The notes below the pieces were generated by a model, which made no database searches, was not told the origin of the DNA, and was given only the letters and a program-made list of their open reading frames with translations. A DNA stretch of 35,413 nucleotides, from contig JAAEOZ010000062.1 in NCBI GenBank assembly GCA_024222685.1, positions 1-35,413 on the forward strand. The letters are read 5' to 3'. This stretch comes from Gammaproteobacteria bacterium (GTDB lineage: Bacteria; Pseudomonadota; Gammaproteobacteria; GCA-001735895). Position numbers and translations under genes: made by a program. Positions within the stretch are counted from its first letter, which is position 1, and each line of letters starts with the position of its first letter. Positions 385 through 24,815 of the stretch are shown here, one piece after another.

Positions 385-645
385 TTGTCGAAATGGATAA
401 AAGTGATGACCAATCACGTTCATTTACTAGTGGCAGCTTATACAGAAGAAGGTATTGGAAAAATAAAGCCGTTTAATCAACACAAAGCCTACCGGCAATT
501 ATTTCCAAGTTACTTAACGGAAACGGATTTGAGAGATATTCGCGAAAAAATCAATAAAGGCTGGGTCCTGGGTAGTGAGGAATTCAAGCGTAAGATATAT
601 CAATTTACAAGACATCCATACTCTTTTACGGTAACATTAATTTAA
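385..645 (+). pseudogene. Degenerate HUH/Y1 (IS200-like or REP-associated tyrosine) transposase remnant
   Basis: HUH motif MTNHVHLLV, followed soon after by a C-terminal-like segment (DIREKINKGWVLGSEEFK). At 86 aa it lacks the N-terminus and middle of a full enzyme. Confidence 0.65.
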
Positions 646-735
646 ATAATGATAATAGAAACGAGCTTTTAACTCTCGAGTTTACCCTAATATGTCTTGT
701 TGAGGCTTTAGATATTGTAATGAAGGGAAATAAAA

Positions 736-1200
736 TTGGAACTTTCTTTTAGACGTTATTACTTATTTTTTCAAGCATTCGTTGCATTATTGCAAGCTTG
801 GAATATTAAAACTCGCAGTAAAATTTCCTACGTTCAATTTACCCCCTCTAATCAATTAAATAAACTTTCCCAGACTGATATAGACTATCTGGCAAAATGT
901 GCCGATTTCCTGGTGCGCTATGGAGCTATCCGCACTGGCAGAAAGTGTTTTTTTCGCGCATACATACTCGGCTCTGTGTTACGTAAGTGGGGTATACCAG
1001 TCATTTTGAATGTGGGTTTATACAATTTAATTGGAGACTGTAAAAGACGCGGGCATTGTTGGCTTACCCTAAACGGTCATATATTTGCTGATTCTTCAAC
1101 CAAAGTGGATATTTATAAAACCCGGCTAGGGTCAGGTAGCAACGGCATTTGTTATTGGTATGGAGACTTGAAAACACCATCTTCTAATATCTATTGCTAG
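736..1200 (+). CDS. Lasso-peptide B2-type leader peptidase (transglutaminase-like cysteine protease)
   Basis: KCFFRAYILGSVLRKWGIPVILNVG...GHCWLTLNG matches the B2 pattern CLxRS...G(I/V)...HAW. TTG start with GAAGGG upstream. Adjacent to an RRE gene. Confidence 0.85.
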   Translation: MELSFRRYYLFFQAFVALLQAWNIKTRSKISYVQFTPSNQLNKLSQTDIDYLAKCADFLVRYGAIRTGRKCFFRAYILGSVLRKWGIPVILNVGLYNLIGDCKRRGHCWLTLNGHIFADSSTKVDIYKTRLGSGSNGICYWYGDLKTPSSNIYC

Positions 1201-1215
1201 TAGAACTACGGAAAT

Positions 1216-1506
1216 ATGAAAACCTTTGCTCTAAATCATACGCAATATGTTCCCAGCACAAAACTGACATGGCGCGAAGTTCATGGTGAATTAGTAGCGA
1301 TAGATGTTAATAGCGGTGAGTACCATGTTTTTAATGCGATAGGAAAACTTATTTGGTTGTCCATTGATGAAGGATGTACCGCTCCCGAAATTCTAACTCA
1401 AATTGAAATGGAATATATTGTTAATAAAGAAACTGCACTAGCCGATTTAAATGAATTTTTAGGTGATTTATGTGATCGAGGGTTATTAATAAATAACTCT
1501 CAATAA
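1216..1506 (+). CDS. PqqD-family RiPP recognition element (lasso B1-like)
   Basis: 96 aa with the pattern WREVHGELVAID..SGEYHVFNAIGKLIWLSID...EY.V....A..DL.EFL..L...GLL, typical of the PqqD/RRE fold. Confidence 0.9.
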   Translation: MKTFALNHTQYVPSTKLTWREVHGELVAIDVNSGEYHVFNAIGKLIWLSIDEGCTAPEILTQIEMEYIVNKETALADLNEFLGDLCDRGLLINNSQ

Positions 1507-1615
1507 ATATCAATCTTATAGAGGAATTAATTCCTGTTTATTATGTGTCGCTATCTAGTAATTCAATTAAACGGTTATTAACGGCCATGAATGACCCACT
1601 AATGAGGAAATAAAA

Positions 1616-1780
1616 ATGAAAGAAATTAAAAATGATAAGTTAGTAATCCTGGATTCACAAAAAATAGAGGAAAAATCTGAGGAATTACAAAAACCGTACG
1701 TTGCACCAAAATGCGATACCCATAATCCGTTAAAAATAATGAGTGCCTGGCAAGATAATTCTTCAGAATTAGAATTTTAA
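1616..1780 (+). CDS. RiPP precursor peptide, 54 aa: MKEIKNDKLVILDSQKIEEKSEELQKPYVAPKCDTHNPLKIMSA-WQDNSSELEF
   Basis: Translated by hand; too short for the ORF track. RBS GAGGA at 1604-1608, ATG at 1616, TAA at 1778-1780. Carries the YxxP RRE-binding motif (KPYVAPK) and lies between the RRE and kinase genes. Confidence 0.85.
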   Translation: MKEIKNDKLVILDSQKIEEKSEELQKPYVAPKCDTHNPLKIMSAWQDNSSELEF

Positions 1781-1840
1781 ATATTTTGTTAGGCTGTTTA
1801 ATGTCACGTATTTTTTCGAAGCGTCACTAGTAAGCTGCGA

Positions 1841-1859
1841 AGGCTAATTTTATTAGCCT
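1841..1859 (+). terminator. Stem-loop downstream of the precursor gene (partial terminator or mRNA stabiliser)
   Basis: AGGCTAAT-TTT-ATTAGCCT is a perfect 8-bp inverted repeat about 60 nt after the precursor stop. There is no long U-tract. Confidence 0.45.
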
Positions 1860-1970
1860 CGAAGTTTGCCTGGAAATACCAATAAGTGAATTTTTTCAGG
1901 GTTAACTTATTATTGTCTTATATAGATTTCTCCTGGTAAGTAACAGTTTGCCCAGGTCAGTTGCTTGCTA

Positions 1971-2966
1971 ATGACATCGTACAAACTTCCGGGTATTACT
2001 CTATCCATACAGGCTACCTCACCGAGAGTGGAAAAAGCTTTAAAAAGTATATTTAATGAGTGTCAAGAAACACACCAAGAAGCAGATATGATTTTGAGAG
2101 GGAATGGAATCCAAAATCATGAGATTATTGATTATTTACCTGACTGGATTATTAAACGACTGCCGCATTTAGACGTGCGGATGGATCCTATTATGCTTTA
2201 TAGCCCAGAAAATCAGGCAGCAGCTATTGGGAAAATTGGTGATTCATTATATTGTGCCTGGAATTCAATAGCCGGTACATCTGTTAATTTTGTCTGTACT
2301 ATCGATAATCAGAATAGCTCTTATGGCTTATTCCATCCAGTATTAATACCTGTTTTACGAGAAGCATTCTTAATGCACGGACTTTTGATGCTTCATAGCG
2401 CCGGAGTAAGTTGTCCCAACGGGGTTGGTGCTTTAATTATTGCAATCAGTGGTGGAGGTAAAACCACAACTGCTCTCTCTATGGTTCGCATTAATGCAAA
2501 GCTGATTGCAGATGATTTGATAGTATTAAATCCTTTAACGACATCACTTCAGGCAGAGGGCATTCCTAAGTTATTAAATTTAAAGATGGAGACAATCGGA
2601 TTTTTTGAAGAGTTAAAAGCATTGCCAAATTCTTCGTTTACCAAAAAACATAGATATAAAAAGTCAGTTTCTGCAATTAAAGTTTATGGCAATAATTGCA
2701 TGAAATCCTTAGCTAATATTCACGTCGTCTATTTTGTAAAGGTATCACCTGACGGCCCAGCAGTTACACGTTTAACAGTTGCTGATTCTTTAAATCGTTT
2801 AGCGCTAGCACATAGCTTTAGTCGCAACCAGAGACTCGATAGCAGATCTATTAGTGGTTTAACTGAAGCATTAAGCCTAGTGGAAGCTTATGAACTAACA
2901 ACCGGACCAAATCCCGACAGATTGGGAAAATGGTTAATGCAACATTGTTGCAACCATAAAATATGA
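1971..2966 (+). CDS. HPr-kinase-related Ser/Thr kinase (RiPP tailoring kinase)
   Basis: LHSAGV (conserved His), Walker A-like ISGGGKTT and LIADDLIVL (DD motif) are the HprK-family signature. Start is ATG 1971 or TTG 1965. Confidence 0.85.
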   Translation: MTSYKLPGITLSIQATSPRVEKALKSIFNECQETHQEADMILRGNGIQNHEIIDYLPDWIIKRLPHLDVRMDPIMLYSPENQAAAIGKIGDSLYCAWNSIAGTSVNFVCTIDNQNSSYGLFHPVLIPVLREAFLMHGLLMLHSAGVSCPNGVGALIIAISGGGKTTTALSMVRINAKLIADDLIVLNPLTTSLQAEGIPKLLNLKMETIGFFEELKALPNSSFTKKHRYKKSVSAIKVYGNNCMKSLANIHVVYFVKVSPDGPAVTRLTVADSLNRLALAHSFSRNQRLDSRSISGLTEALSLVEAYELTTGPNPDRLGKWLMQHCCNHKI

Positions 2967-4021
2967 AAAAAAACGTCACTGATAGTTGTGAAAGAAAATT
3001 TGTCTGCGACATGCTGCGTGCCTTTATCGATAAAGAAACGAATAAAGCGATCGTTTCAGAACTTACCTTACCTAAAAATATAAACTGGAATTTATTGGAA
3101 GCAGTAGCCGCTAGAAATGGTTTAATTGCGATTTTACAATCCATGATTGATCCCTCCTGTATCCCCATGCGACATAAGGAAAAATGGATGCGTTATTCTG
3201 TTCAGACTTTATTTAGTTACACACAGTCAGAAAAAGTAGCGGCAAATTTTTTTGGAATTTTGAATGAGGAGGGCATACCAGCCGTTGCAATGCGCGGTAT
3301 GGCGTTGTCACAATGGGTGTATTCCGACCCGATTTTTAGGCCCATGGTTGACATTGATATACTCGTTCCTTCCGATGTTAGATATGATTTTGTAGCTAAT
3401 CTTGAAAAACACGGACTAAGGTGTAAAAGAACTTTGCGTAGCCAGTTTGTATATGAAATAGACAATATAAAAATTGAAGTACACTGGTCTTTTCTTACCC
3501 CTAAACGCTATCGTGCTTCAGCTAATTTTGATAGATGGCTTGATACTCGCCAGGAATTTGTAACCAAATCAGGTGCCATTTATTGTTTTTCCCCGGAAAA
3601 TGAATTATTAGATTTAGTGTGCCATGCGTTTATTCATCATGAACTTGATACATTACTTAAATTAACGGATATTGCGTTGGTGGCGAGTTACAAAAATCTG
3701 GATTGGGGTTATATTAATCAATGGTGTGAAGAAGCTTCGATGACAAGACTCTTCGCTATCACATTGGGCCTTATTGATCATTTATTTGGTCTTTCTTTTT
3801 TGAATAATTTGACCCAAAAAAACACACGATCAAATTATTCGGTTAAGTTTTATAAAGCCTATTCTGCTCGGTTTTTCCAGACTGACACAGTTACTGATCT
3901 ATTTCGCCGTAAACGGGCACTGCTATATGCTGCTGAAACTATCGATATAAAAATAAAACAGCTAATACGCTTTTTAAGTATCGACCAATTTTCAGAGCTA
4001 ATCAAAATAACAAAAGCTTGA
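2963..4021 (+). CDS. Nucleotidyltransferase family protein (NTP_transf_5-like)
   Basis: MRGMALSQWVY...RPMVDIDILV, IEVHW and H..H...L.DI match this family. Overlaps the kinase stop by 4 nt. Confidence 0.85.
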   Translation: MKKNVTDSCERKFVCDMLRAFIDKETNKAIVSELTLPKNINWNLLEAVAARNGLIAILQSMIDPSCIPMRHKEKWMRYSVQTLFSYTQSEKVAANFFGILNEEGIPAVAMRGMALSQWVYSDPIFRPMVDIDILVPSDVRYDFVANLEKHGLRCKRTLRSQFVYEIDNIKIEVHWSFLTPKRYRASANFDRWLDTRQEFVTKSGAIYCFSPENELLDLVCHAFIHHELDTLLKLTDIALVASYKNLDWGYINQWCEEASMTRLFAITLGLIDHLFGLSFLNNLTQKNTRSNYSVKFYKAYSARFFQTDTVTDLFRRKRALLYAAETIDIKIKQLIRFLSIDQFSELIKITKA

Positions 4022-4064
4022 GTAAATAAAAGAATGCAGGGATCTAATCGCTCGCCGTCATCGG

Positions 4065-4296
4065 CAACAATCCAGCTTTCGGTTCTACAGTCTATATGAC
4101 AAGGTCTATCGGGATGACGTACTGCAACACGCCTACGATCTGGTCAGGAAAAATAGAGATAGTGGATGGCCCACTGTTGAGTCTACTGAGGCAATGGCTA
4201 AAAGTGCGGGTCGTCCAGGTAGAAAAAGGCAGGGAGATGTGTAGGTGGCGGCAAGAAGGCTCGAAAAGGTCCACCGCAAGTGGTATCAACGTCTAA
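4065..4296 (+). pseudogene. Degenerate group II intron reverse transcriptase/maturase fragment
   Basis: Frame from 4077 reads FRFYSLYDKVYRDDVLQHAYDLVRKNR (RT0 region). Another frame reads IVDGPLLSLLRQWLK, and a decayed KGPPQ resembles GTPQGG. Internally deleted and frameshifted. Confidence 0.75.
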
Positions 4297-4408
4297 TTAT
4301 CTCAGGTCGGACCTGAATAACTCATTGATTCCACATGTAGATCATCTCCGGAAACGATACTGTAACGTGCTGACTGTTCACGTTTCGTACGGACATCAGA
4401 GCAAAAAA

Positions 4409-5002
4409 TCAGGGGCTGTGTTGTGTTTCCGATTGATTTAGTGAACTAACCAGAACTGCGCTGGGACTGACAATACAGACTTCGCGGCACAGGCCGCAAC
4501 CGACGCAGATTTCCTGGTCGATAACAGGTCTGGTCATCTCCCACCTGAGCGCGCCCGGAACTGGGCAGGCATATTCACAGGCGCCGCATTCGGGTCCGCT
4601 ATAGGGCAGGCAGGTCTCGGTATCAATTGTTACCAGCGCCAGTCGTGGTAAATCGGATTCGGTATTCTTTTCGCTTTTGGCTATTTGCAGAGCTTCAGTT
4701 TCACAGGCATTAACGCAGGGCCAGTCTTCGCAGAGATGGCAACCGACATTGAGCAGGTCTAGCGCCGGAGTGCCCGCTGCCTGGACATCAAATTGGCCGG
4801 AAAGATTAAAGATAACATCGTGTGGGCAGGCCTCGATGCAGGCATCACAGCGCGTGCAGTTGAGCAGGAAATTCAGTTCATCCTGCGCGTAAGGCGGTCG
4901 AATCCAGTGGCGCGCTTTTTGTTTGACCTTATGATCGATGTGCTTGACGACTTCCTCGGCCGAGCGTCGAAAAGTATTTTTAAAGAAAGTTCGACGGTCC
5001 AT
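4409..5002 (-). CDS. NapF/NapG-like multi-[4Fe-4S] ferredoxin
   Basis: Start MDRRTFFK at 5002 overlaps the upstream stop (TAATG). Contains IRPPYA, CTRCDACIEACP, CHLCEDWPCVNAC, CGACEYACP and CVGCGLCREVC. Confidence 0.8.
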   Translation of the reverse strand: MDRRTFFKNTFRRSAEEVVKHIDHKVKQKARHWIRPPYAQDELNFLLNCTRCDACIEACPHDVIFNLSGQFDVQAAGTPALDLLNVGCHLCEDWPCVNACETEALQIAKSEKNTESDLPRLALVTIDTETCLPYSGPECGACEYACPVPGALRWEMTRPVIDQEICVGCGLCREVCIVSPSAVLVSSLNQSETQHSP

Positions 5003-6537
5003 TACATCCTCATGATCATAGGTTGCATCAACATCCACAGGTGGAATGACATGATCGTCACCACAAATAATAATATCGGTGATAAACGAAACCCCCACAG
5101 ATTTTGTGCTTCACCTGAGAGGAGTTTGTGGCCACGATTGCGGATGATTTGTAGAGAGACGATGAATCCGAAGATCATTAAAGCAGTTTGCACTAAATAC
5201 AGGAGATCCTGCGATAGCCACATTTGCATATGGCGTTGATGTTTCTCCATCATGGTAAGCGGTAGTGTTCCGTTGCCCAACGGATTGGTAATGACTGCCC
5301 ACAGGTTGCCCCCTTCGCGAATCAGATGATTCAGGTTGTGCGCCATGTGATAGGAGAATGCCAATGGCAGCGCGACGAATGCCATTTCGGCGAAGCAACG
5401 CCTAAACTCCAGTTGGGTTTTCGCCAGATAACGTGTCAGTGATATCAGCAGGCTATACAGGCCCGCGACGATTGCCAGGCATAGCAGCAGTCCGATGCTG
5501 AAGCTCCATAGCAAGCGGCCGGAATCACCAATCAAACGGGCAAGACTTTTCATCCAGTCTTCCCAGAACGGCATCATGGTAATGCCGTGAAACGCGGTCA
5601 ATGCCAGTAGGCCTAGCATGAACCAGGCTTCGTCCCAGTGCGGGCGGCCGCTGTGTATGGCTTCGACACTGGGTGAACGCAGGCGCCAGGCGATATTCTG
5701 CTGTGGACAACTGAGCGAACAATTGCCGCATGATGTGCAATAACTATTCTGATTCAGACGCCCCATCACCAGCCAGGTGGGGCAGGCATCGATCGTTTCG
5801 TTACCGTGGTAGCATTCCAGGGTTTTACAATCGGCACATATTTGCGGCTCAATCGGGCGCAGCTCAACCGTCGCCAGTTGTGAGTAAACGCCGACCGTGC
5901 GACCCACCGGGCAAAAGTTTCGACAAAATGCCTTGCGTTGAAACAGGGCCAGAGAAATCGTCGCCAGTACAACCATGAGCAATGCAACAACCGCGGTGGC
6001 GTAGGGGTTGATGGTAATACCCACGCCGAGCTCGAGCCAGGTCAGGCCGATGAATAAAATCAATGCGGGCCAGACATTATTGAGATAGCGCGGCACACGC
6101 CAGTTCAGACTGTTGTTGGGTTCGGCGCGTTTCCACAGGCGACGACGCACCAGCCAGTGCGCGATGGCGTCCCAGGGGCAAACTGAACACCAGGCGGAGC
6201 CGAACACGAAAATAGAAAATACCAGTGCCGACCACCACAGATTCCAGGTCACGACGGTGGCGAAATTCCGCTCGGCGACAGGCGTACCAGACAGGCCGGC
6301 AATAATCACGGTGAGGAAAAATAACACCATGAGCAATTTTAGCGACAACAATACCCAGACACTGGTGGCGATACGTTGAATTACCCCGCCGACGAGGGGT
6401 GTGCGGGTCAAATTGTAAACCAGGGTATGTCGTTTGCCGGGAACCGGAAACACACAGGCTAGCACGAGGAATACGATCATCGATGCGAAAATGAATATTG
6501 CCCACGACAGTGGTAAACCGGGGTGCGTCATCGTCAT
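5002..6537 (-). CDS. Polytopic membrane [4Fe-4S]-binding protein (NapH/FixG/FtrD-like)
   Basis: About ten hydrophobic segments with WCSVCPW, FCRNFCPVG, CADCKTLEC and CTSCGNCSLSCP. Confidence 0.75.
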   Translation of the reverse strand: MTMTHPGLPLSWAIFIFASMIVFLVLACVFPVPGKRHTLVYNLTRTPLVGGVIQRIATSVWVLLSLKLLMVLFFLTVIIAGLSGTPVAERNFATVVTWNLWWSALVFSIFVFGSAWCSVCPWDAIAHWLVRRRLWKRAEPNNSLNWRVPRYLNNVWPALILFIGLTWLELGVGITINPYATAVVALLMVVLATISLALFQRKAFCRNFCPVGRTVGVYSQLATVELRPIEPQICADCKTLECYHGNETIDACPTWLVMGRLNQNSYCTSCGNCSLSCPQQNIAWRLRSPSVEAIHSGRPHWDEAWFMLGLLALTAFHGITMMPFWEDWMKSLARLIGDSGRLLWSFSIGLLLCLAIVAGLYSLLISLTRYLAKTQLEFRRCFAEMAFVALPLAFSYHMAHNLNHLIREGGNLWAVITNPLGNGTLPLTMMEKHQRHMQMWLSQDLLYLVQTALMIFGFIVSLQIIRNRGHKLLSGEAQNLWGFRLSPILLFVVTIMSFHLWMLMQPMIMRM

Positions 6538-6540
6538 GGA

Positions 6541-7131
6541 TTATTCCGGCGCTATCGGTTTCGACGGCCTGTCGCTTTGTATCTTCGCGCGCGTTAAACG
6601 TTTGCGTTGCACTATGCTGACAGTAATCAGTACTAATACGATGATACCGACTGCAATACCCAGTGGCCCCACAGGCAACGGATTACCGACACTCATCGGG
6701 AAGTCAATGCTATAAGCTTGGTTATCGGCGACAAATTCAGCGGTGATAATATAGTTACCTTCTTGCTGAAAAACAAAACCCTGCCGATAAACGCTGTCAT
6801 CGAGCACCTGCGCACCGAGTTTTTCTTGCTGGTTGGAAAACCAGCTGTCGTCTTTAACCCTGAAAGTCACATCGGTATTGAGCGGCTCACCGTTATCCAG
6901 GTGGGCAGCGTAAAAATGGATACGACCCGCTTCGTTGGGTTTGGGAAATGCCGGGTAAACCATTGCGGTAACAAAATAGTTGCCGATCTGGGTTTCGATA
7001 TTCATGCTCGGCGGCGTGTTCGAATCTTCATTCAGGCTATAGGACGGACGGCCGAGCACGTGATGCGAAAATGCCTGCGCCGATAGCAGCGCAGTCACCA
7101 GAAATAAAAGAAATTGTCGTGAATGGTTCAT
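6541..7131 (-). CDS. Hypothetical exported, C-terminally membrane-anchored protein (~196 aa)
   Basis: ATG at 7131 overlaps the upstream TGA. Signal peptide ends AQAFS, mature part begins HHVLGRP, and there is a C-terminal TM helix with a basic tail. Confidence 0.7.
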   Translation of the reverse strand: MNHSRQFLLFLVTALLSAQAFSHHVLGRPSYSLNEDSNTPPSMNIETQIGNYFVTAMVYPAFPKPNEAGRIHFYAAHLDNGEPLNTDVTFRVKDDSWFSNQQEKLGAQVLDDSVYRQGFVFQQEGNYIITAEFVADNQAYSIDFPMSVGNPLPVGPLGIAVGIIVLVLITVSIVQRKRLTRAKIQSDRPSKPIAPE

Positions 7132-7745
7132 GCCTGGCTCGCCGAGTGTGCCGCAATCGTACCGCGAGATCGTTCGACTATCCAGATGGGTAAACTGGGA
7201 TGAGGGCAGACTTCGACACAAAGCCCGCAACCGACACAGCCTTTTTGTACCACCGGTTGATACTGATTCCACTGTTTGAAATTGATGCCGCGTTCACCGA
7301 GCGGACAAATACTGACACAGGCACCACAGATACCCCGGTCGACCCATGGGTAACAGGCGCTACGATCGATTTGTGCGATCCCCATATCGATTGCTTCACG
7401 AGCCACCAGGGTTAGTGCTTCGGTGGGGCAGACCTCCATGCACTTGTTACACAGAATGCAGGCTTTGTTTTCGGGGTCGATGTAGGGCGTGCTGACCTGC
7501 GCCCCGCCATCTCGCTGATGAAAGCGAATACAACGCGGTGGGCAGATTTCGCCACAAAGGCCACAACCGATACATGCAGCGACAAAAGCACTATCGTCCT
7601 TTAACGCGCCAGGAGGGCGTAAATGTTTTTTGTTGTCAATCTTAACCGCTGGCGTCATTACCCGGCTGATTACCATAGGCATCGATGCGGACGCCAACAT
7701 GCCGAATGTATAAACCAGCCACTGCGATACGCTACGACGGCGCAT
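7128..7745 (-). CDS. NapG/MauM-type ferredoxin (second copy)
   Basis: Probable start MRRRSVSQW at 7745. Contains LRPPGA, CIGCGLCGEICP, CILCNKCMEVCP, CGACVSICP and CVGCGLCVEVCP. Confidence 0.8.
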   Translation of the reverse strand: MRRRSVSQWLVYTFGMLASASMPMVISRVMTPAVKIDNKKHLRPPGALKDDSAFVAACIGCGLCGEICPPRCIRFHQRDGGAQVSTPYIDPENKACILCNKCMEVCPTEALTLVAREAIDMGIAQIDRSACYPWVDRGICGACVSICPLGERGINFKQWNQYQPVVQKGCVGCGLCVEVCPHPSLPIWIVERSRGTIAAHSASQA

Positions 7746-8745
7746 GACTGGTTTGTTCCTCCTGCGCCTGACGTCGATATAGCTGACCGAGTTGTCCGGG
7801 ACCCTGAAAAGCAATATCTTTTGGTGAGATGTAAAACGTCATCGCATCGGTTGGGCAGACCGCTATGCAGGCGCAGCAGTTATTGCATTCCTGGCCAAAG
7901 TCATCCCGTAATGGATCGAGGCCAAATTCGCATATGGCGGTACATTTGGCACAATCGTTACAGCTTTCGACGATACGTTTGATTCGAAACATGCGATAGC
8001 GCCCGATTAATGAATATAGCGCGCCGCCGGGGCAAAGATAGCGGCAAAACCCGCGCCGCGCGACGAGCAGGTCGAACAACAGGGTAATCAGAAAATAAAC
8101 TATCCCGGAACCGAAACCACCGAGCGCAATCGCGTAATAAATTTCTCGGCCGATCACCGCTGGCGGATAAATCGCCGCAAACACGACCGAACCCGAGGCC
8201 ATTGCAACCACCAGTCCGAGTATTAACACGATATATTTAAGTCGTAAGTCGAATTGTCTGCGCCCTGTACGAAATCCGGCCTTTTGTAATATCGCCGCGA
8301 GGTTGGTATTGAGTTCGTATAACAGTGTTGCCGGACAAATCCATCCACAAAAAAAGCGGCCAAAAATGGCGGTTAACAGCACGGGCAGGAGTGCGGTGAG
8401 CAGGAAGGGCCAGAAAATTTTCAGTCCGCTGGCAATCTGCCCAATTACCGCCAAAGGGTCGCTGAGTTGAAAACTCCAGAAAGTACCCGACCAGGTATTG
8501 CCTTTTACCGCATCGAGCTGCTTTTCAGGATCCGATACAAATGGCCTGGTGAGGTTTTCCATGGCATCGTAGAACTGCTTTTCTCCCGGTGCGAGCAGGT
8601 CATAGGCATGCGCCGCGATATAGGTTTGATAGAGATGGATAGTGGGAATCAGCAGCAGCATCAAAAAGACTACCGACAGGCTCAGCCAGCGCAGCTTGTT
8701 TAAGTGCTTCCACAGGGAAAACGGTTTCAGCGGGGAATTGGGCAT
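7732..8745 (-). CDS. napH: NapH/MauN-type ferredoxin membrane protein (quinol dehydrogenase subunit)
   Basis: LSDPLA, FGRFFCGWICP, RRGFCRYLCPGGALY, CNDCAKCTAIC and CNNCCACIAVCP. Start 8745 overlaps the upstream TAA. Confidence 0.8.
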   Translation of the reverse strand: MPNSPLKPFSLWKHLNKLRWLSLSVVFLMLLLIPTIHLYQTYIAAHAYDLLAPGEKQFYDAMENLTRPFVSDPEKQLDAVKGNTWSGTFWSFQLSDPLAVIGQIASGLKIFWPFLLTALLPVLLTAIFGRFFCGWICPATLLYELNTNLAAILQKAGFRTGRRQFDLRLKYIVLILGLVVAMASGSVVFAAIYPPAVIGREIYYAIALGGFGSGIVYFLITLLFDLLVARRGFCRYLCPGGALYSLIGRYRMFRIKRIVESCNDCAKCTAICEFGLDPLRDDFGQECNNCCACIAVCPTDAMTFYISPKDIAFQGPGQLGQLYRRQAQEEQTSHAPS

Positions 8746-9311
8746 TAAGTGTAATCCGGTATAATACGGATGGCATGTGGCAACTGGATGCAGGAGCGTT
8801 CGCATAGTCCACAACCCACGCAACCGTCCAGTACATGTGGCTGCTCAAGGCGGCCGACTCGAATCGCGATATCGGGTAATGGGCAGGCTCGATAGCACAC
8901 ACCGCAGGTTTTTCCCTGGTACGACAGGCAGAGGTTTTCATCGACCCGCGCTTTGCCCATTTTGACCTTTTGCAGAATGGGTTCCATATCGCGTTCGATG
9001 GGTTCAATCGCATCGGTCGGGCAAACCTCACCACACTTCATACATAATATGCAGGCCTGTTGGCGCGGGATAATGTAGGGTGTATCCAGCGAAGCGATGC
9101 CGTTTTCGACACCGAAGTATTGAATGCATCGATTAGGGCAGACTTCACCGCACTGGCCGCAGCGAATACAGCGACTTTCAAAATCCTGTTCGCTCAGCGC
9201 CCCGGGTGGACGTAGATATCGTAGACTTTTCGACTGACTGGCCGGTAGGCCGGCGGCGGGCAGCATCGCTGCGACCGCCGCCAGACTTTTTATGAAATGC
9301 CGGCGTCTCAT
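8745..9311 (-). CDS. napG: NapG/MauM-type periplasmic ferredoxin
   Basis: Tat signal MRRRHFIK, LRPPGA and four Cys-cluster motifs beginning CIRCGQCGEVCP. Confidence 0.8.
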   Translation of the reverse strand: MRRRHFIKSLAAVAAMLPAAGLPASQSKSLRYLRPPGALSEQDFESRCIRCGQCGEVCPNRCIQYFGVENGIASLDTPYIIPRQQACILCMKCGEVCPTDAIEPIERDMEPILQKVKMGKARVDENLCLSYQGKTCGVCYRACPLPDIAIRVGRLEQPHVLDGCVGCGLCERSCIQLPHAIRIIPDYT

Positions 9312-9334
9312 GGTGTTACAGATTTCAGGTCCGG

Positions 9335-12061
9335 CTAGCCGATCTTTTCAATACGCGCCGCCGATTTTTTGAAGTCCACCTGTCCCGAAACCGGGTCCCA
9401 GACGCGGCTGGTAACGCGGTTAGCGAGCCACTTGTTTTTCTCGGGTACTGCGCTGTCGGCGACGGACAGATTCCAGGGTCCGAACATATAACCGCGAGGC
9501 ACGTTATTACGTGCTGGTTTGACCAGACTATTGGTGCCCACCTGGGCGCGTGCTTCGAGTTGCCCGCGACGGGTAATCACGCGTACTTTATCGCCATCTT
9601 CGATACCCAGGTCTTTCGCATCGTCGGCGTGCATTTCGACGTACATTTCCGGCACCAGTCGACGCGTGGTTGGGCTGCGGTTCGATTTCGCGGTATGGAA
9701 ATGCTCGTAGACTACGCCAAGACCGAACCAGTAGGGAAATTTATCTTCTGGTACATCTTGCCATTTTTTACCGCGGTGGGCTTCGTCGGGTATATCGGGG
9801 GTGAGCCCCTTGTCGCGCGCCAGTTTTATCAGATCTATGTGGTCGATGGTGTAAAGATCGGCTCTGGTGCCAAATTCCATCAACTTCCTGGTAATTTCCT
9901 CACGGTCGCTATAGTCCTGGTGGCAAATCCGCATGTGTACCTTGCCATCCTTGGTACGGAAATAACCATAGGGTTTACTTTCCCAGTTACCTTCCTGCAG
10001 CATATAGCGGCGCTTCGTACCACCGGTCTTGGCAATACCGTAAGACGGTGACGGCCACTGGATGCCACGCAGATTTATGAGCTGCTGATAGGGCGAAATA
10101 CCGTCGACTTTTTCAACCTCGAGAATACCCGTCAAATCGGCATCGGTGCCCACCGAGGCGCGGCAAACATCGCGGAAAACCTCCTCGCTGTCGTAGAAAC
10201 CATTCGCGGTGCGCTTATAGGGTAATGCCTTGTCCATATCGAGCCCCAGCAATTTACCTATGCCCTTGGCTTTATCGATAACCATATCCATGTCAGGGCG
10301 GCAGCCTTCGGGAGGCATCGCGGCCTGTTGACAAATATTGATGCGACGTTCGGAGCTAATGTAGACGCCGTCGACCTCACCCCAGGTGGCCGCCGGAAAG
10401 ATTACATCGGCGTAGAGGTTGTTCGGCGCGTGACGATAAATTTCCTGTACCACGTTAAAGGTTTTCATCAGTGCCGGGCGCACCAGATTCTCCTGATCGG
10501 GTAAATCGATATGCGTGGCATACACCAGAAACATGGCCTTGACTTCGTCCTTCAGTGCACGCTCCATCATGCCCACCGCCATGCCCGGATTGGCCGAGTT
10601 CATCGCGTTGACCAGGTTTTGTTCGGGGACACGCCAGAATTTGGCGATCTGCGCGCGGTGTTTGTCATTCTTGAGTGATTCGTTGAACGGCAGGCGTCCG
10701 GTCAGGCCACCGGTAAAACGTTCGCCCATCGCATTCGGTTGACCGGTCATGGAAAAAGGTCCGCAGCCTGGCTTGGCCAGGTTACCTGTCAAGGTGAGCA
10801 GGTTGACGATGGAAATGACGTTATGCTGGCCGTGGATGTGCTGGTTATAACCGATTCCCCACATGATGATAACGCCACCGTAGGCTTCGCCACCGGGTAC
10901 TGCGCTGGCGACATCGGAAGCCTGTTTGCCCTTGCTGCGCGCCAGACGTTTACGCGTGGCGTCGGCAAACATTCCGGCGACTTTACGGATTAACTCGGGT
11001 GAAACGTCGTGGTTCGGCCCACCCATTCGGTCCTGCACCTGTTCCGGACTGTAATTGTTCGTCACTTCGTCTACATATTCCTGCCAACCCGTGGTGTGTT
11101 CCTTAACAAAATCCCAGTCGATGGTATCGGGGTGGTCTTTGAGTAACACATGGGCGATCGAATTGAGGAAACTGATATCACCGTTCAAGATCGGCACATG
11201 CACCGTGTTGTCGGGGTTGATATCCTGGTATCCCTTGGTGGTACCGGTATAACGCGGATCGACAATAACGGTGGGAATATCATTCTTCTTTTTATGATCG
11301 GCAGCGCGCCAGAAAACAATCGGATGCGACTCGCGGGCGTTATGGCCGAAGTGCATAATCATGTCACAGAGTTCGATGTCGTCGTAGGCCAGTGGCGGGG
11401 TATCGGAACCGAGTGTTGCAAAATATCCGGTGACCGCCGAGGTCATACACATGCGTGCATTTGCCTCGATGGTATTCGAACCCAGTACGCCTTTCATGAA
11501 CATATTTTCCAGATACTGACCTTCCATGGTGAGCTGGCCCGAGCCGTATAGCGAAATCGAGTTGCCGCCATATTTCTTCGCCAGATGCGCAATCTTGTGA
11601 TCGACCATTTCACTGACTTCTTTGTAAGACACGCGTAGGAAGTGCTCATCGTCAAATGATCCCTTGGTCTTGCTGATGTAATCGAGATCACCATGCCCGG
11701 GTTTGTTCCACTCTTCCCAGACGTCTTTGCGCACGTAAGAGTCGCCTTCCATGCGGTCGACATAAATCGGTTCGGCGGCGGTCAGACCCTTGATGCATTG
11801 CAGGCCGTAATTAGTAGGGTGGTCCTTGTCCGGGCGCATCGATACAATTTTGCCGTTTTCGGCCTGGATCACCGTGCCACAACCGACCCCGCAATACGGG
11901 CATTGCCCAAGCGCGGTAGTCCGCGTTGCGGTATCGCCTTCGCTGGTAGCAGCTTCGAGTTCCGGGTTAACGCCGACCATCAGGCTGGCACCCGCAGCGG
12001 AGCCGGAGATAAAGGCGCTGTTCTTGATAAAATCGCGCCGATTCATTTTAATTCTTTTCAT
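9335..12061 (-). CDS. Tat-exported molybdopterin (bis-MGD) oxidoreductase of the nitrate reductase NapA/NasA/NarB clade
   Basis: Tat signal NRRDFIK, [4Fe-4S] motif CPYCGVGCG...CIKG, Mo-ligand region NARMCMTSAV, FSMTGQPNAMG, and a C-terminal MGD-binding domain ending DPVSGQVDFKKSA. Confidence 0.85.
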   Translation of the reverse strand: MKRIKMNRRDFIKNSAFISGSAAGASLMVGVNPELEAATSEGDTATRTTALGQCPYCGVGCGTVIQAENGKIVSMRPDKDHPTNYGLQCIKGLTAAEPIYVDRMEGDSYVRKDVWEEWNKPGHGDLDYISKTKGSFDDEHFLRVSYKEVSEMVDHKIAHLAKKYGGNSISLYGSGQLTMEGQYLENMFMKGVLGSNTIEANARMCMTSAVTGYFATLGSDTPPLAYDDIELCDMIMHFGHNARESHPIVFWRAADHKKKNDIPTVIVDPRYTGTTKGYQDINPDNTVHVPILNGDISFLNSIAHVLLKDHPDTIDWDFVKEHTTGWQEYVDEVTNNYSPEQVQDRMGGPNHDVSPELIRKVAGMFADATRKRLARSKGKQASDVASAVPGGEAYGGVIIMWGIGYNQHIHGQHNVISIVNLLTLTGNLAKPGCGPFSMTGQPNAMGERFTGGLTGRLPFNESLKNDKHRAQIAKFWRVPEQNLVNAMNSANPGMAVGMMERALKDEVKAMFLVYATHIDLPDQENLVRPALMKTFNVVQEIYRHAPNNLYADVIFPAATWGEVDGVYISSERRINICQQAAMPPEGCRPDMDMVIDKAKGIGKLLGLDMDKALPYKRTANGFYDSEEVFRDVCRASVGTDADLTGILEVEKVDGISPYQQLINLRGIQWPSPSYGIAKTGGTKRRYMLQEGNWESKPYGYFRTKDGKVHMRICHQDYSDREEITRKLMEFGTRADLYTIDHIDLIKLARDKGLTPDIPDEAHRGKKWQDVPEDKFPYWFGLGVVYEHFHTAKSNRSPTTRRLVPEMYVEMHADDAKDLGIEDGDKVRVITRRGQLEARAQVGTNSLVKPARNNVPRGYMFGPWNLSVADSAVPEKNKWLANRVTSRVWDPVSGQVDFKKSAARIEKIG

Positions 12062-12074
12062 TTCTTGACTCCTG

Positions 12075-12719
12075 TTACTTGGTCAGTGTGCGTAGATATA
12101 CAATGATGTCGTCGATTTCCTGGTCACTCAGATTGGCTAGCCCAGCTGGCCCGGAAAACCCCAACATTCGAGTATTGGAGCGGCCCTCTTTGATCGTGAC
12201 GCGCAGGAAACCATCAGATACTTTGTTTAAAGTACCCACCTTGCCTATTGCAGTACCAGTACCGCCTGCTGCATAACCGTCGCCTTCAGGCCCGTGGCAG
12301 GTAGAGCAGATATATTCAAACCATTGTTGACCCAGTCGTGGGTCGCCATGCGCGTCCGGTTCTGCATCAACTTCTTTGGCACGATGCGGTAATTTTGAAA
12401 ATGAACGCAGGTAGGCAAGAATAGCGCGGCCCTGATCCCGCCCCAGGTGAGCAAAAGGCGGCATTCCGGTGCCCGGTCGCCCATCCCTGATGGTACCGAG
12501 GATAAATTTGTCCGAAGCGATACTGAGAAATTCCGGATTTGATAAGGAAGGAGCAAATCCGGGTTTACCAATCGCGTCGGCCTGATGGCAAAAAACACAG
12601 TTTTGTGCGTAAAGTTGGCTACCGAGTTCAATTTTTGCCGCATCCTGTGCCAGAGATACCCCTCCAGATAAAGAGCACAGCACAATGATTGGATATAGAT
12701 GTCGATGGAGTTTTTTCAT
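12075..12719 (-). CDS. Periplasmic diheme c-type cytochrome (not NapB-like)
   Basis: Signal peptide from MKKLHRH (12719). CVFCH...GMPPF and CSTCH...RMLGF indicate two class I cytochrome c domains. Confidence 0.85.
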   Translation of the reverse strand: MKKLHRHLYPIIVLCSLSGGVSLAQDAAKIELGSQLYAQNCVFCHQADAIGKPGFAPSLSNPEFLSIASDKFILGTIRDGRPGTGMPPFAHLGRDQGRAILAYLRSFSKLPHRAKEVDAEPDAHGDPRLGQQWFEYICSTCHGPEGDGYAAGGTGTAIGKVGTLNKVSDGFLRVTIKEGRSNTRMLGFSGPAGLANLSDQEIDDIIVYLRTLTK

Positions 12720-12769
12720 ATTTTTTCCTGTGGGCCGATTGTGTTTATTAATGACTTTTTCCTGCCATA

Positions 12770-13429
12770 TTACCATTCTTCATCCGTTGCCGGTTTTTGC
12801 AGGTTAGCATGGCATTCGTAACAGGGCACAGCTTCTTCTTCAAAGCGTATATGCATTTCGTCGATCAGAGCTTCCTTGTCAAATTCGTTGGGTAGTTCGT
12901 GCGCGACTCCCTGATGGCAATCGATACAGGTTTTACCCCAGTCGATATTCAATTGGTGGATATTACTGCCCATGCTGGACTGTTTATCAAAGGCCATGGA
13001 TTCGTCGTCATGGCAATTACGGCATTCTCTCGAATCAGTTTCGCGCATACTATTCCAGACATTGCTGGCCAGCTGGTAACGTTTTGCCTGAAATTTTTCC
13101 CGTGTATTTATACTACCTAGAATCCAGTGGTAGAGTTCGTTTGTGGCGCGTATTTTACGAATCATCTTATGTGCCCATTCCCGAGGTACGTGACAATCTG
13201 GACAGGTTGCGCGTACTCCGGTGCGATTTAAATAATGTTCGGTATTGCGGTATTCCTGGTAAACATTCTGCTTCATTTCATGACAGGAAATGCAAAATGC
13301 CTCTTTGTTAGTTAGTTCGATGCTCCAGTTAAGTCCGCCCCAAAGGACAATGCCGGCAGCAATGAAAAGCGGAATAGCAATCAGTGGAGACCTGTTTACA
13401 AACTGGGTAATAGCCTTTATTAGTAGCAA
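12770..13429 (-). CDS. napC: NapC/NirT-family membrane-anchored multiheme cytochrome c with a fifth CxxCH
   Basis: N-terminal TM, FCISCHEM, RATCPDCHVP, SRECRNCH, TCIDCHQGVAH, plus an extra CYECH near the C-terminus. Confidence 0.85.
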   Translation of the reverse strand: MLLIKAITQFVNRSPLIAIPLFIAAGIVLWGGLNWSIELTNKEAFCISCHEMKQNVYQEYRNTEHYLNRTGVRATCPDCHVPREWAHKMIRKIRATNELYHWILGSINTREKFQAKRYQLASNVWNSMRETDSRECRNCHDDESMAFDKQSSMGSNIHQLNIDWGKTCIDCHQGVAHELPNEFDKEALIDEMHIRFEEEAVPCYECHANLQKPATDEEW

Positions 13430-13689: not shown

Positions 13690-15054
13690 TTATTTGGTAA
13701 TAATCTCCGGCCCCATCATCATGGTTGGCAGCCAGGTTGAAACAAATGGCACGTAGGTGACGATGATCAAAAACAGAAACATGATCGCCAGCCAGGGCGC
13801 AGCAGCCCTGACGACGTTAAGCATCGACATACCGGCGACGCCAGCAGTGACAAAAAGATTGAGTCCAACTGGCGGCGTAATCATGCCGATTTCCATGTTA
13901 ACCACCATGATGATACCAAGATGAATCGGATCGATTCCCAGTGCAATGGCGATCGGGAATACCAGTGGTGCTACGATAATTAGTAAACCCGATGGTTCCA
14001 TAAATTGTCCGCCAATGAGCAACAACAGGTTCACCACGATTAGAAACATGATTGGTCCGAAACCAGCGGATAGCATTGCTTCGGTGATCATTTGCGGGAT
14101 ACGTTCTTCGGTTAGTACATGCTTTAATATCAAAGCATTGGCAATAATGAACAGCAACATGATAGTCAATTTTCCAGCCTCGAACAGGCTGTGTTTGGTA
14201 TCTTTATGCCAGAAAATAGAAAGGCCACGCCATATCAGCATTGCACCCCCCGCACCTGCTTGCTTGAATGGCCCCATGTCCTTATAAATAAAGTTAGCAA
14301 TCAGGAACGCATAAATTGCAGCAACAGCGGCAGCCTCCGTTGGGGTGAAAATTCCACCGTAGATGCCGCCCAGGATAATCACTATAAGCAACAGGCCCCA
14401 GCTCGCATCACGTGCTGCGTCTAATATTTCACCCCAGCCAGCCCAGGGCTGTGCAGGTAGATTTTTATAACGCGCTACTAGGTATATCGCCAGCATTAAC
14501 ATGCCACCGGCCATGAGTCCTGGAATGACGCCAGCGAGGAACATTCTACCGACCGAGACATCGGTGGCAGCCGCGTAAACTACCATGACAATTGATGGCG
14601 GAATGAGTATGCCGAGCGTGCCGGCATTACAGATAACACCCGCAGCAAACTCTTTGGTATATCCGACCTGCAGCATTCCGGCGATTACAATACTACCGAT
14701 CGCAACTACTGTAGCTGGCGATGAGCCTGATAAAGCGGCAAACATCATACAGGCAAAAACCGATGCCATCGCCAGTCCGCCGCGAAACGAACCAACTACA
14801 GCAATCGCAAATCGGATGATGCGATGTGCCACACCGCCGGTCGACATGAATACTGAGGCGAGTATGAAAAACGGAATCGCGAGTAGCGTATAGTGCCCTT
14901 CGAAGGCCGAGAACAGGGTTTGTGCGACCGATGCAAGTGAGGCATCCGAATGCATGAGCAAAAAGATAATGCTGGACAGGCCGAGTGAGACCGCTATCGG
15001 TACGCCGATTAGCATGAAACCGACGACCATAAGAAATAATATTACTATAGCCAT
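13690..15054 (-). CDS. dctM: TRAP transporter large permease
   Basis: LLAIPFFILA, ALSGSSPATVVAIG, GTLGILIPPSI, GIFTPTEAA and ITPPVGLNLFV. Confidence 0.95.
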   Translation of the reverse strand: MAIVILFLMVVGFMLIGVPIAVSLGLSSIIFLLMHSDASLASVAQTLFSAFEGHYTLLAIPFFILASVFMSTGGVAHRIIRFAIAVVGSFRGGLAMASVFACMMFAALSGSSPATVVAIGSIVIAGMLQVGYTKEFAAGVICNAGTLGILIPPSIVMVVYAAATDVSVGRMFLAGVIPGLMAGGMLMLAIYLVARYKNLPAQPWAGWGEILDAARDASWGLLLIVIILGGIYGGIFTPTEAAAVAAIYAFLIANFIYKDMGPFKQAGAGGAMLIWRGLSIFWHKDTKHSLFEAGKLTIMLLFIIANALILKHVLTEERIPQMITEAMLSAGFGPIMFLIVVNLLLLIGGQFMEPSGLLIIVAPLVFPIAIALGIDPIHLGIIMVVNMEIGMITPPVGLNLFVTAGVAGMSMLNVVRAAAPWLAIMFLFLIIVTYVPFVSTWLPTMMMGPEIITK

Positions 15055-15683
15055 TATGCATCTCCTTCTTTGTCACTGTGGGAGAGTTCTTCGAGTTCGT
15101 CTTCGACTTCATGACCGGCAATAATTTTATCGACATTGCCACTCAATACGTCCCAGCCCAGTTGCAAAAAACGGAATGTCAATAGTGCCATGCCCAGTGG
15201 TAGTGCCAGATAGGGTATGACGCGGGGAATTTTTTCATAACGCTCACCTTCGTTTATCCAGTCGGCGAGAAACATAAACATTTCCGGCATGGGTATATCT
15301 TCGGTTTCGAGCCACGCCCGTTCGGTGGCAAACGGGTACCAGTAATTCCACGAACCGACGAGTAACATGACTGAAAATGCCAGGCAGGCACACACCGAGA
15401 TAATCGCCATCAGTTTTCGCGCACCTGGTGATACCATGTTGATGACTACATCAACACCGATATGAATGTGTTTTTTTACTGCGTAGGATGCGCCCATGAG
15501 CACCAGCCAGGCGAACAGGAACACGGTCAGTTCCAGTGCCCATAATATATTTGAGTTGAACAGGTAACGGGCAATGACATTAGCGAAGGTGATGAGAGTC
15601 ATCAGCCCTAGACACAGAGCAATACTGGTTTCTTCTATTTCATCGATTATTTTTCCTGTTCTCGACGCGTGTTGATGTTGCAT
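15054..15683 (-). CDS. dctQ: TRAP transporter small permease
   Basis: Four TM segments with NVIARY, WALEL and HIGVD; lies between dctP and dctM. Confidence 0.92.
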   Translation of the reverse strand: MQHQHASRTGKIIDEIEETSIALCLGLMTLITFANVIARYLFNSNILWALELTVFLFAWLVLMGASYAVKKHIHIGVDVVINMVSPGARKLMAIISVCACLAFSVMLLVGSWNYWYPFATERAWLETEDIPMPEMFMFLADWINEGERYEKIPRVIPYLALPLGMALLTFRFLQLGWDVLSGNVDKIIAGHEVEDELEELSHSDKEGDA

Positions 15684-15740
15684 GGTCGAATCCTCCGGAG
15701 GATGCTTTATATTTAGTTAGTATTTTTGTTATTTGAAGTC

Positions 15741-15766
15741 CCGGCGGCCTGATAGTCAGCCGCCGG
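15741..15766 (-). terminator. GC-rich intercistronic hairpin after dctP
   Basis: CCGGCGG-C-CTGA-TAG-TCAG-CCGCCGG inverted repeat about 25 nt downstream of the dctP stop. Confidence 0.6.
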
Positions 15767-15790
15767 TTAGCTTTATTGCGTTGGCCGTAT

Positions 15791-24450: not shown

Positions 24451-24777
24451 TTGAATATTCGCGCTAAGAGAGATATCGAGGGGTATTTAGTCAATCCTGA
24501 CGAATGGAATGAGGACATTGCAAATAAGCTCGCCAGCGAAGAAGATATTGAACTTGATAATGGGTATTGGTCAATACTGAATTTTATTCGGGATTATTAT
24601 AACCAGCAAAATATCGCCCCGGATGTTCGTCATCTGATTAATTACCTGGCGAGTGAAAACAAGTGCGGGAAGAGAGAAGCCAAGCAGCTCATTTTTAAAT
24701 TGTTTCCATATGGATATGTGAAACAGGCCTGTAAAATTGCCGGCATGAAAAGACCGCGTGCGTGGAGCACGGGTTAA
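24451..24777 (+). CDS. TusE/DsrC/DsvC-family protein lacking the C-terminal cysteine
   Basis: D.EGYL.NP.EW.E..A, LFPYG...QACKIAG; ends RPRAWSTG. RBS GAGGAG precedes a TTG start. Confidence 0.85.
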   Translation: MNIRAKRDIEGYLVNPDEWNEDIANKLASEEDIELDNGYWSILNFIRDYYNQQNIAPDVRHLINYLASENKCGKREAKQLIFKLFPYGYVKQACKIAGMKRPRAWSTG

Positions 24778-24815
24778 GACAGGTTCAGAAATATCGGGTC
24801 GGGTCCAACCAGATT

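Follow-up and report, generated by a model that had tools for sequence, protein, structure and literature searches.

A cyclase-free cassette of lasso-type leader-processing genes, an HprK-like kinase and a nucleotidyltransferase in a gammaproteobacterial genome: a probable source of a linear phosphorylated peptide

The closest described relatives of the system reported here among the peptides made by ribosomes and modified after translation (RiPPs) are the linear polyphosphorylated peptides (LPPs), which were defined by Popov et al. (Nat Commun, 20 May 2026; PMC13381572) from the lppA-K-B-S-D-N genes of Paenibacillus alginolyticus. In that paper, the LPP set consists of a signal peptidase I (SpI)-like peptidase, a RiPP recognition element (RRE), a kinase similar to HprK, an NTP-transferase and a pump resembling MsbA, with no cyclase. 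A phosphorylated linear intermediate was demonstrated, LppK placed several phosphates on Ser3 of the linear core of this cyclase-less cluster, leader cleavage was poor without phosphorylation, and LPPs and paeninodins were called ‘restricted to the Bacillota’. For pseudomycoidin, PMC6993621 describes phosphorylation of the peptide by PsmK and a need for PsmN in +162 Da hexose additions to the phosphorylated peptide. Here, we analyse a cassette at positions 736–4021 of contig JAAEOZ010000062.1 from a Gammaproteobacteria bacterium (assembly GCA_024222685.1); the whole stretch of 35,413 nucleotides is referred to as the window. The cassette consists of five intact, co-oriented open reading frames (ORFs), all of them open, and is thus the compact unit that a preliminary description of this DNA had recognized:

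736–1200, + strand: B2-type leader peptidase, a transglutaminase-like cysteine protease of 154 amino acids with a TTG start (PF13471)
1216–1506, + strand: discrete PqqD-family RRE, lasso B1-like, 96 amino acids (PF05402)
1616–1780, + strand: precursor peptide gene, 54 amino acids, without a known family (homologous small ORFs, YxxP motif)
1965–2966, + strand: HprK-like P-loop kinase, 333 amino acids (PF07475 below cut-off, conserved P-loop and DD pair)
2963–4021, + strand: NTP_transf_5 nucleotidyltransferase (NTase), PsmN/LppN-like, 352 amino acids (PF14907)

The NTase start overlaps the kinase stop by 4 nt, and the starts of the B2 and precursor genes are both preceded by the same context, AGGAAATAAAA(A/T)TG. 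We consider it probable that this is a horizontally acquired, intact and minimal cassette for a linear, non-lasso ribosomal peptide with a phosphorylation mechanism. Gene content, conservation, intact catalytic residues, the absence of a cyclase, the precursor family and the island status of the locus were observed directly.

Like the LPPs, the cassette has no cyclase and combines a discrete RRE of the lasso type with an HprK-like kinase and an uncharacterized NTP-transferase; both precursors carry a YxxP leader motif and both systems are patchily distributed. The differences are also considerable. The LPP leader peptidase LppS is SpI-like (SipW-type), whereas the window cassette has a B2 cysteine peptidase and no SpI; LPP clusters include the MsbA-like exporter LppD, whereas no ABC gene is present in the window; and LPP precursors have 35–200 residues, with a core of 45 residues in the one studied, compared with a core of about 10 residues here. 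From the LPP motif YxxPxVLxHQxIxFETxxS the present family shares only YxxPx(C/V)...PL, and its hosts are the window genome and metagenome-assembled genomes (MAGs) of Desulfobacterales, Thermodesulfobacteriota and Verrucomicrobiota, all Gram-negative lineages, rather than Bacillota. The closest solved relatives of the window RRE are TbiB1 (5v1u; E = 1.6e-7), PbaB1 (9x90; 1.3e-4) and LppB (9x8z; 1.6e-3), placing it nearer to TbiB1 than to LppB. The cassette therefore matches the LPPs in its RRE, kinase, NTase and lack of a cyclase and departs from them in peptidase, exporter and leader motif, and is neither a strict LPP member nor a new class. The preliminary description had proposed a candidate new RiPP class and stated that no product of kinase/PqqD/NTase cassettes had been characterized; the first proposal has been overtaken by the LPPs, which use the same RRE, HprK-like kinase and NTP-transferase set, and the second is outdated, since polyphosphorylation of core Ser3 was shown for an LPP in PMC13381572. 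What is new in the cassette is that a B2 protein takes the role of the SpI-like peptidase, that the acidic core is very short, that an exporter is missing and that the hosts lie outside the Bacillota. We found no paper on B2-containing cyclase-less cassettes in the open-access literature, and Supplementary Data 1–2 of PMC13381572 may list B2-only or non-Bacillota variants.

Phosphorylated lasso peptide clusters of the paeninodin/pseudomycoidin type resemble the cassette in their split B1/B2 proteins, their HprK-like kinase with a DD metal site and their PsmN-type NTP-transferase, which has a DxD motif and a fold like that of ANT(2'') (PMC6993621). Phosphorylation first and NTase-dependent addition second, as described for pseudomycoidin, would also be the order of events here. 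Those clusters differ in that they encode a macrolactam synthetase (C) and an ABC exporter, their cores are of lasso length and their phospho-acceptor is a C-terminal Ser, whereas the window cassette has no cyclase and a 10-residue core ending in Phe. The HPr-rel-A and other HprK-related cassettes (TIGR04352, TIGR04353 and TIGR04355), noted only bioinformatically, likewise pair an HprK-related kinase with a PqqD-family chaperone. The window proteins score far below the cut-offs of these models: scores of 26.6 bits (kinase, TIGR04352) and 31.4 bits compare with cut-offs of 200, and a score of 18.8 bits (PqqD protein, TIGR04353) with one of 35. Phospeptin reportedly depends on a lanthipeptide-synthetase-like kinase of unrelated enzymology, and we know of no RRE/B2/NTase set in that system. 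Its likeness to the present case is that of a non-canonical poly-phosphorylated RiPP (Paoli et al., Nature 2022; PMC9259500).

The precursor gene has a GAGGA sequence 8 nt upstream of its ATG, and homologous small ORFs occupy the same position in related loci. Its leader comprises residues 1–44, with the motif YVAPKC at residues 28–33 (nt 1697–1714), and the predicted core WQDNSSELEF corresponds to residues 45–54 (nt 1748–1777). In an alignment of ten precursors, Tyr28 and Pro31 are invariant (10/10) and Pro38 and Leu39 are conserved in nine. The residue that ends the motif is Cys, Val, Ile, Phe or Leu, and the leader continues beyond YxxPx(C/V/I/F/L) as xx(H/L/K)xPLxx(V/M)(S/A)x. Judged by sequence, the leader fits the lasso RRE-binding motif, which is given as [Y/W]xxPx[L/V/I/A/F/Y] in PMC13381572. 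Homology between the precursors stops 17 residues after the Tyr, and three core types follow. This break agrees with what we take to be the Tyr(-17) spacing of lasso leaders and, on both grounds, cleavage is predicted at Ala44/Trp45, the junction proposed in the preliminary description. For LPPs, a position of -16 can be derived for the Tyr from the motif and core in PMC13381572. A word-based homologue search with the precursor returned only the query itself and is uninformative, since small ORFs are rarely called.

The first core type, [WY]xDxSS[DE]LxF, is found in six precursors from five loci (the window, L006, L007, L008 and two in L012). Poly-Tyr cores (VTYYYYYY and TYYYYYYTYTYIW) are present in L046, L048 and L050 in the alignment and also in L051, and the third type, IAASSPA, occurs in L052. 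The poly-Tyr precursors are located at L046:12585–12674, L050:9752–9892, L048:11206–11367 and L051:~40–135, and one of them has only 29 residues. All four loci belong to Desulfobacterales genomes, and in three of them an ABC exporter, a Kdo/WaaP-like kinase and as many as three radical-SAM genes, one of them B12-binding, are also encoded. We know of no described RiPP with such poly-Tyr cores, and these sister loci suggest that the same leader serves other chemistry yet to be explored.

The host genome is 98% complete, in 812 contigs, and contains PF00733 (Asn_synthase) matches in three places, on contigs C102, C158 and C459 and none on the window contig. The only full-length match is the N-acetylglutaminylglutamine (NAGGN) amidotransferase TIGR03104 (901 bits against a cut-off of 570), and the other two are short and of the PP-loop type. 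A cassette with the family kinase was identified in nine genomes (G000, which is the host, G041–G043, G061, G203, G306, G327 and G375). PF00733 is absent from the cassette contig in all nine, one such contig being 1.09 Mb long, and G042 has no full-length Asn_synthase anywhere. The lasso-cyclase model NF033535, which is narrow, gave no match above its cut-off in the three genomes tested with it, and a phmmer search with an Asn-synthase query found none in 12 locus stretches. As a positive control, the same query matched an ORF beside two distant HprK-like kinases in L045. In that locus (G241:C27, Desulfobacterales) the two kinases are in tandem at 1–338 and 1036–3158 and adjoin the Asn-synthase-like ORF; the locus could represent either a genuine lasso cluster with kinases or a cluster of the HprK_rel_B type.

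The absence of a cyclase claimed in the preliminary description thus holds for the window contig, for the genome-wide Asn_synthase search and for every related locus examined. The macrolactam cyclase (C protein) of lasso systems was found in none of them and, because there is no cyclase, no macrolactam would be formed. We rejected the view that the locus is a deletion relic of a lasso cluster, as all related loci are free of a cyclase and the genes are under purifying selection. A trans-acting cyclase was also rejected, there being no candidate in the genome. Lasso rings have 7–9 residues and close on Asp/Glu, with a tail long enough to thread. The predicted core here is ten residues long, begins with Trp or Tyr and has its acidic residue at position 7, followed by three residues, and it does not match a threaded lariat. 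It is therefore highly improbable that the product is a lasso or branched-cyclic peptide whose cyclase is encoded elsewhere or was lost in the fragmented assembly: B1, B2 and the YxxP leader are indeed lasso machinery and the genome is split into hundreds of contigs, but its completeness is high, its sole full Asn_synthase is accounted for, the cassette contigs of all nine genomes (including the megabase-sized one) and the whole of G042 provide no enzyme, and three residues past position 7 are too few to thread.

The B2 protein matches PF13471 (Transglut_core3) with an E value of 3.3e-7 and 30.7 bits (cut-off 26). Residues Cys71, Arg74, His107 and Trp109 are invariant in six of six aligned cassette B2 proteins, and an acidic residue lies 13 positions after the His (Asp120). 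By its above-cut-off PF13471 match and its invariant Cys71 and His107, the protein is predicted to be a B2 cysteine leader peptidase of the lasso kind. Among atlas features for the B2 protein, 28 of 30 matches fall in one Pfam set, the rows listed carrying PF13471, which we regard as a lead only. A structural model built on an alignment of only six rows has a pLDDT of 80.3; Foldseek found nothing in the PDB at E ≤ 0.001, the highest-ranked entries short of significance being transglutaminases, and VIA wide gave only helical matches (Z about 5, residues 1–87). A PDB sequence search with B2 yielded chance-level rows only. The predicted complex of B2, PqqD protein and precursor scored 0.76, and 0.77 with an unrelated protein replacing B2, a result to which we attach no weight. 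The PqqD protein matches PF05402 with E = 1.3e-13 and is conserved in seven loci; together with the invariant Tyr and Pro of the precursor, this suggests the RRE and YxxP leader pairing of lasso systems.

The kinase matches PF07475 (Hpr_kinase_C) with E = 6.5e-6 and 26.2 bits (cut-off 33.3); its best NCBIfam match is HprK_rel_B (about 31 bits against a cut-off of 200), and it matches the solved HprK 1ko7 with E = 1.4e-3. The database copy begins at the ATG at 1971 (331 residues). The kinase retains the P-loop SGGGKTTT as well as the DD pair; across 47 kinase-family members His144, Gly165, Lys166, Asp183 and Thr210 are invariant and Asp184 is nearly so. An exhaustive profile-free search gave 51 family representatives at E ≤ 1e-30, and the closest database relative is a full-length protein with 70% identity. 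Judged by motif, without aligning PsmK, Asp183-Asp184 would be equivalent to Asp158/Asp159 of PsmK, the DD metal site at which the D158A/D159A mutant is dead (PMC6993621).

The NTase matches PF14907 (NTP_transf_5) with E = 1.4e-35, and Gly112, Tyr120, Arg126, Asp130, Asp132, His221, Asp236 and Trp248 are invariant in 38 sequences. Its Asp130-x-Asp132 probably corresponds, again by motif, to Asp134/Asp136 of PsmN, whose D134A/D136A mutant is described as inactive (PMC6993621). The AlphaFold2 model (pLDDT 92.9) has as its best folds ANT(2'')-Ia (E values of 1.7e-5 to 4.9e-4, TM scores on the target of 0.61–0.68), MenT1 and LnuA. The ANT(2'') structures matched include 5cfs and 4xje, which Phyre2 also gave for PsmN (PMC6993621); a PDB sequence search with the NTase returned no entries. 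Among kinase homologues of 631–712 residues, all ten examined have NTP_transf_5 behind the kinase part and seven match PF07475, and this natural fusion ties kinase and NTase to one pathway.

The kinase::NTP_transf_5 fusions (631–714 residues) are P0043, P0045, P0059, P0061, P0062, P0066, P0070, P0072, P0073, P0077, L047:6325–8457, L049:5658–7796 and L050:1–2106. Both G375 and G306 have a split pair in addition to a fusion, in G375 on one contig.

A quite different reading of the kinase and NTase, as a conflict module in which a nucleotidyltransferase toxin is paired with a kinase and the small ORF is incidental, takes its appeal from the resemblance of the NTase model to MenT-type toxins, the relatives of which appear from structure titles to be kinase-controlled, and from the patchy, island-like distribution of the cassette. 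We consider this very unlikely, because a PqqD RRE and a small ORF with the RRE-binding motif co-occur in seven loci, six of them with B2, and because radical-SAM enzymes (L046/L047 and L052) and ABC exporters (L046 and L048) accompany the genes elsewhere.

Related loci share the organization of the window cassette to varying degrees. L007, from a Desulfobacterales MAG, reproduces the window order of B2, PqqD, small ORF, kinase and NTase, and L008, from a Thermodesulfobacteriota MAG of 68% G+C, has the same five genes with the precursor first, after which the contig ends. L006 (Verrucomicrobiota MAG) and L012 (metagenome) are short partial contigs with precursor, kinase and NTase, L012 having two tandem precursor genes. 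Strong matches were obtained in 6 of 401 sampled Desulfobacterales genomes. B2, PqqD, precursor and kinase are combined with other cores and extra enzymes in L048, L050 and L052, and the Desulfobacterales loci variously add an NTase, kinase::NTase fusions, radical-SAM enzymes, an ABC exporter and a Kdo/WaaP-like kinase. A Kdo/WaaY-family kinase-like gene lies directly downstream of the NTase in L007 (8507–9259) and L012 (2645–3379) and upstream of it in G375 (L046:17167–17988); tblastn showed no copy of this gene in the window or elsewhere in the window genome.

A comparison of L007 with L012 gives ratios of nonsynonymous to synonymous substitution rates (dN/dS) of 0.17 (kinase), 0.14 (NTase) and 0.20 (WaaY-like kinase lying downstream); kinase and NTase are under purifying selection. 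For the whole precursor the ratio is looser, at about 0.54. The scan of genome contigs used a narrow peptide pattern and gave at least three good loci, that of metagenomes gave one further good locus, and the contexts of roughly 70 other kinase-family representatives lie outside the loci examined. The co-occurrence of short acidic cores with the absence of a cyclase, which the preliminary description had proposed to look for in homologous loci, is seen in five of the loci collected; L046, L048, L050, L051 and L052 have different cores, and all related loci are conserved without a cyclase.

From these components a pathway can be proposed. The PqqD/RRE protein would bind the YxxPx(C/V) motif of the 54-residue precursor, as lasso B1 proteins do. 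The HprK-like kinase would phosphorylate a hydroxyl near the start of the core, most likely that of the conserved Ser49 or Ser50 (core Ser5/Ser6) and possibly repeatedly, and the NTP_transf_5 enzyme, whose translation is coupled to that of the kinase in the window and which is part of the same fusion protein in relatives, would then modify the phosphorylated residue with a hexose-type or nucleotide-type group. The B2 cysteine peptidase would remove the leader at about Ala44/Trp45, releasing the decapeptide [W/Y]xDxSS[D/E]LxF. The reuse of lasso leader recognition and cleavage for a short linear peptide that is phosphorylated and then modified by the NTase, as the preliminary description suggested, is the best reading of the locus, with its chemistry predicted.

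Several observations weigh against this pathway. Its chemical steps, their order, the precise point of cleavage and what becomes of the product are all deduced from the genes. The B2 protein scores 18.4 bits with the NCBIfam model lasso_biosyn_B2, below the cut-off of 33; the kinase falls short of the HprK-family cut-offs in both Pfam and NCBIfam; and L046 has no B2 nearby. Position -2 of the leader is Ser in most precursors and Arg in L006, compared with the Thr that is usual in lasso leaders (PMC10368454). The poly-Tyr cores are devoid of Ser, and Ser-Ser is thus not the target family-wide. In the sole LPP system studied, deletion of LppN changed nothing in B. subtilis (PMC13381572), which makes the NTase step uncertain. 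No exporter is linked to the window cassette, which lacks both the ABC exporter of L046 and L048 and the Kdo/WaaY-like kinase of L007, L012 and L046, and it may be an incomplete version.

The same leader logic could also serve another chemistry, in which kinase and NTase prime a side chain (of Ser or of Asp/Glu) so that it either undergoes elimination or is cross-linked within the molecule through an ester or amide, instead of keeping a stable phosphate adduct, with the conserved Asp3, Ser5, Ser6 and Asp/Glu7 of the core as partners. Lasso rings close at an acidic residue of core position 7, and the core conserves an acidic residue at just this position, in all two acidic and two Ser positions; the modelled NTase fold appears typical of hydroxyl-adenylylating enzymes, and the final LPP product is not established in PMC13381572. 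We nevertheless think this improbable, as the cassette has no lyase, ATP-grasp or cyclase gene, the characterized homologous kinases leave stable phosphates, and the poly-Tyr cores of the sister loci do not have these residues.

The linear phosphorylated peptide remains the preferred reading, and the remaining question concerns the status of the window copy. The cassette has a G+C content of 0.365, whereas the values are 0.485 for the remainder of the window and 0.463 for the genome. The island is bordered on the left by one further feature outside the pathway:

385–645, + strand: degraded IS200-like/Y1 transposase remnant (REP-associated type), left border of the low-G+C island

This remnant retains the motif ‘MTNHVHLL’ and matches contigs C10 and C272 of the same genome by tblastn (E = 1e-5 and 3e-4). 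Pfam gave no match for the ORF itself, and the intact copy of 237 residues in L018 matches PF01797 with E = 2.7e-16. Mobile-element debris had been described on both sides of the cassette, and the left side agrees with this; on the right, nothing mobile was found in 4022–4408, where the G+C content of 0.473 is host-like. Direct repeats at the cassette flanks do not exceed chance-level 14–23-mers, no DNA repeats of the flanks were found elsewhere in the genome, a promoter scan was no better than shuffled sequences (14 against 14.7), and terminator-like sites are unconvincing. No remnants of a Kdo/WaaY-like kinase or an ABC exporter were found beside the cassette. A search of 24 other genomes of the genus did not reveal the family kinase at full length, although it gave one partial match (E = 5.6e-13), and 400 other genomes of the class had no match at E ≤ 1e-25. 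Low G+C content, the transposase remnant and the patchy occurrence within the genus, within the class and in the few Desulfobacterales genomes together point to horizontal acquisition. In L007 the G+C content of the cassette matches that of its own contig.

Public sequencing data bear on the same question. Four DNA runs, from two samples of one study, contain the stretch, and contigs from the two samples cover the cassette and the right junction (X2, 502–5376; X1, 853–5100); in both samples the cassette shows only a few substitutions and is free of indels. No RNA run is listed as containing the stretch, and two runs presumed to be RNA yielded no contigs over it, which has no bearing on expression. 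At the window start (1–434), public contigs over positions 1–328 are several-fold deeper than those over the cassette, a difference also seen over 1–217, and some diverge after position 328; the sequence that follows in these was not found in the window. The depth step and the divergence are a weak hint that only some strains carry the island, and the step may alternatively reflect a conserved neighbouring gene shared with other organisms.

Such observations would suit a stranded or incomplete import, silent or decaying in its host even if the family is real. The copy is without the exporter and accessory kinase of its relatives, is of atypical G+C content, sits beside a dead transposase and has no full-length kinase counterpart in the 24 genomes of the genus searched, and the changes at position 328 hint at a strain-limited island. 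We give this reading only a small chance, since the five ORFs are open with intact catalytic residues, L008 likewise shows only five genes before its contig ends, the closest kinase relative is a full-length protein with 70% identity, and the cassette persists in both samples with few substitutions and no indels.

If the preferred reading is correct, the cassette extends linear phosphorylated RiPPs beyond the Bacillota, the limit stated in the paper that defined them. A lasso B2 protein and B1 RRE can then serve a cyclase-free pathway, and mining rules that equate B1 plus B2 with a lasso peptide would mislabel such loci. With five genes it is the smallest version seen and a simple system for the question of what the widespread NTP_transf_5 enzymes add to phosphopeptides, which remained after both the pseudomycoidin and the LPP studies. 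A broader proposal, which we hold only tentatively and judge somewhat doubtful, is that of a cross-phylum, non-Bacillota family of linear RiPPs with the whole lasso front end (YxxP leader, B1 and B2), no cyclase, an HprK-like kinase and NTP_transf_5 enzyme and interchangeable cores, which arose from lasso clusters independently of the LPPs. Such a family, if confirmed, would give the first B2-processed non-lasso peptides, and its product could carry a phosphodiester-linked nucleotide or sugar.

The host genome has further genes of these families. A second locus (G000:C506; L004:1405–3025) consists of an NTP_transf_5 gene of 390 residues and, behind it, a PqqD-like ORF cut off by the end of the contig. 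PqqD-domain genes are also present at G000:C127:15751–16647, G000:C422:205–414 and G000:C797:8318–8491, and one frame of 421 residues holds both HprK-related and PqqD matches. The extra PqqD loci may be separate HPr-rel-A-type systems.

Thirty non-cassette ORFs of the window were scanned against Pfam, which gave no peptide exporter, signal peptidase or Asn synthase; neither an ABC nor an MFS exporter is present, in agreement with the preliminary description. The only transporter among them is a TRAP DctPQM uptake system (13690–16792), which comes after a respiratory cluster on the − strand (4409–13429) with several 4Fe-4S proteins or ferredoxins, a molybdopterin oxidoreductase of 908 residues, a dihaem cytochrome c and a NapC/NirT tetrahaem cytochrome. 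Two pyridoxal phosphate-dependent (PALP) genes are located at 2–322 and 24762–25739; the truncated one at the window start has as its best match, below the cut-off, the D-cysteate sulfo-lyase CuyA. The other ORFs include chemotaxis proteins, a sensor kinase, an amidase, an arginase-family enzyme and a sigma/anti-sigma pair.

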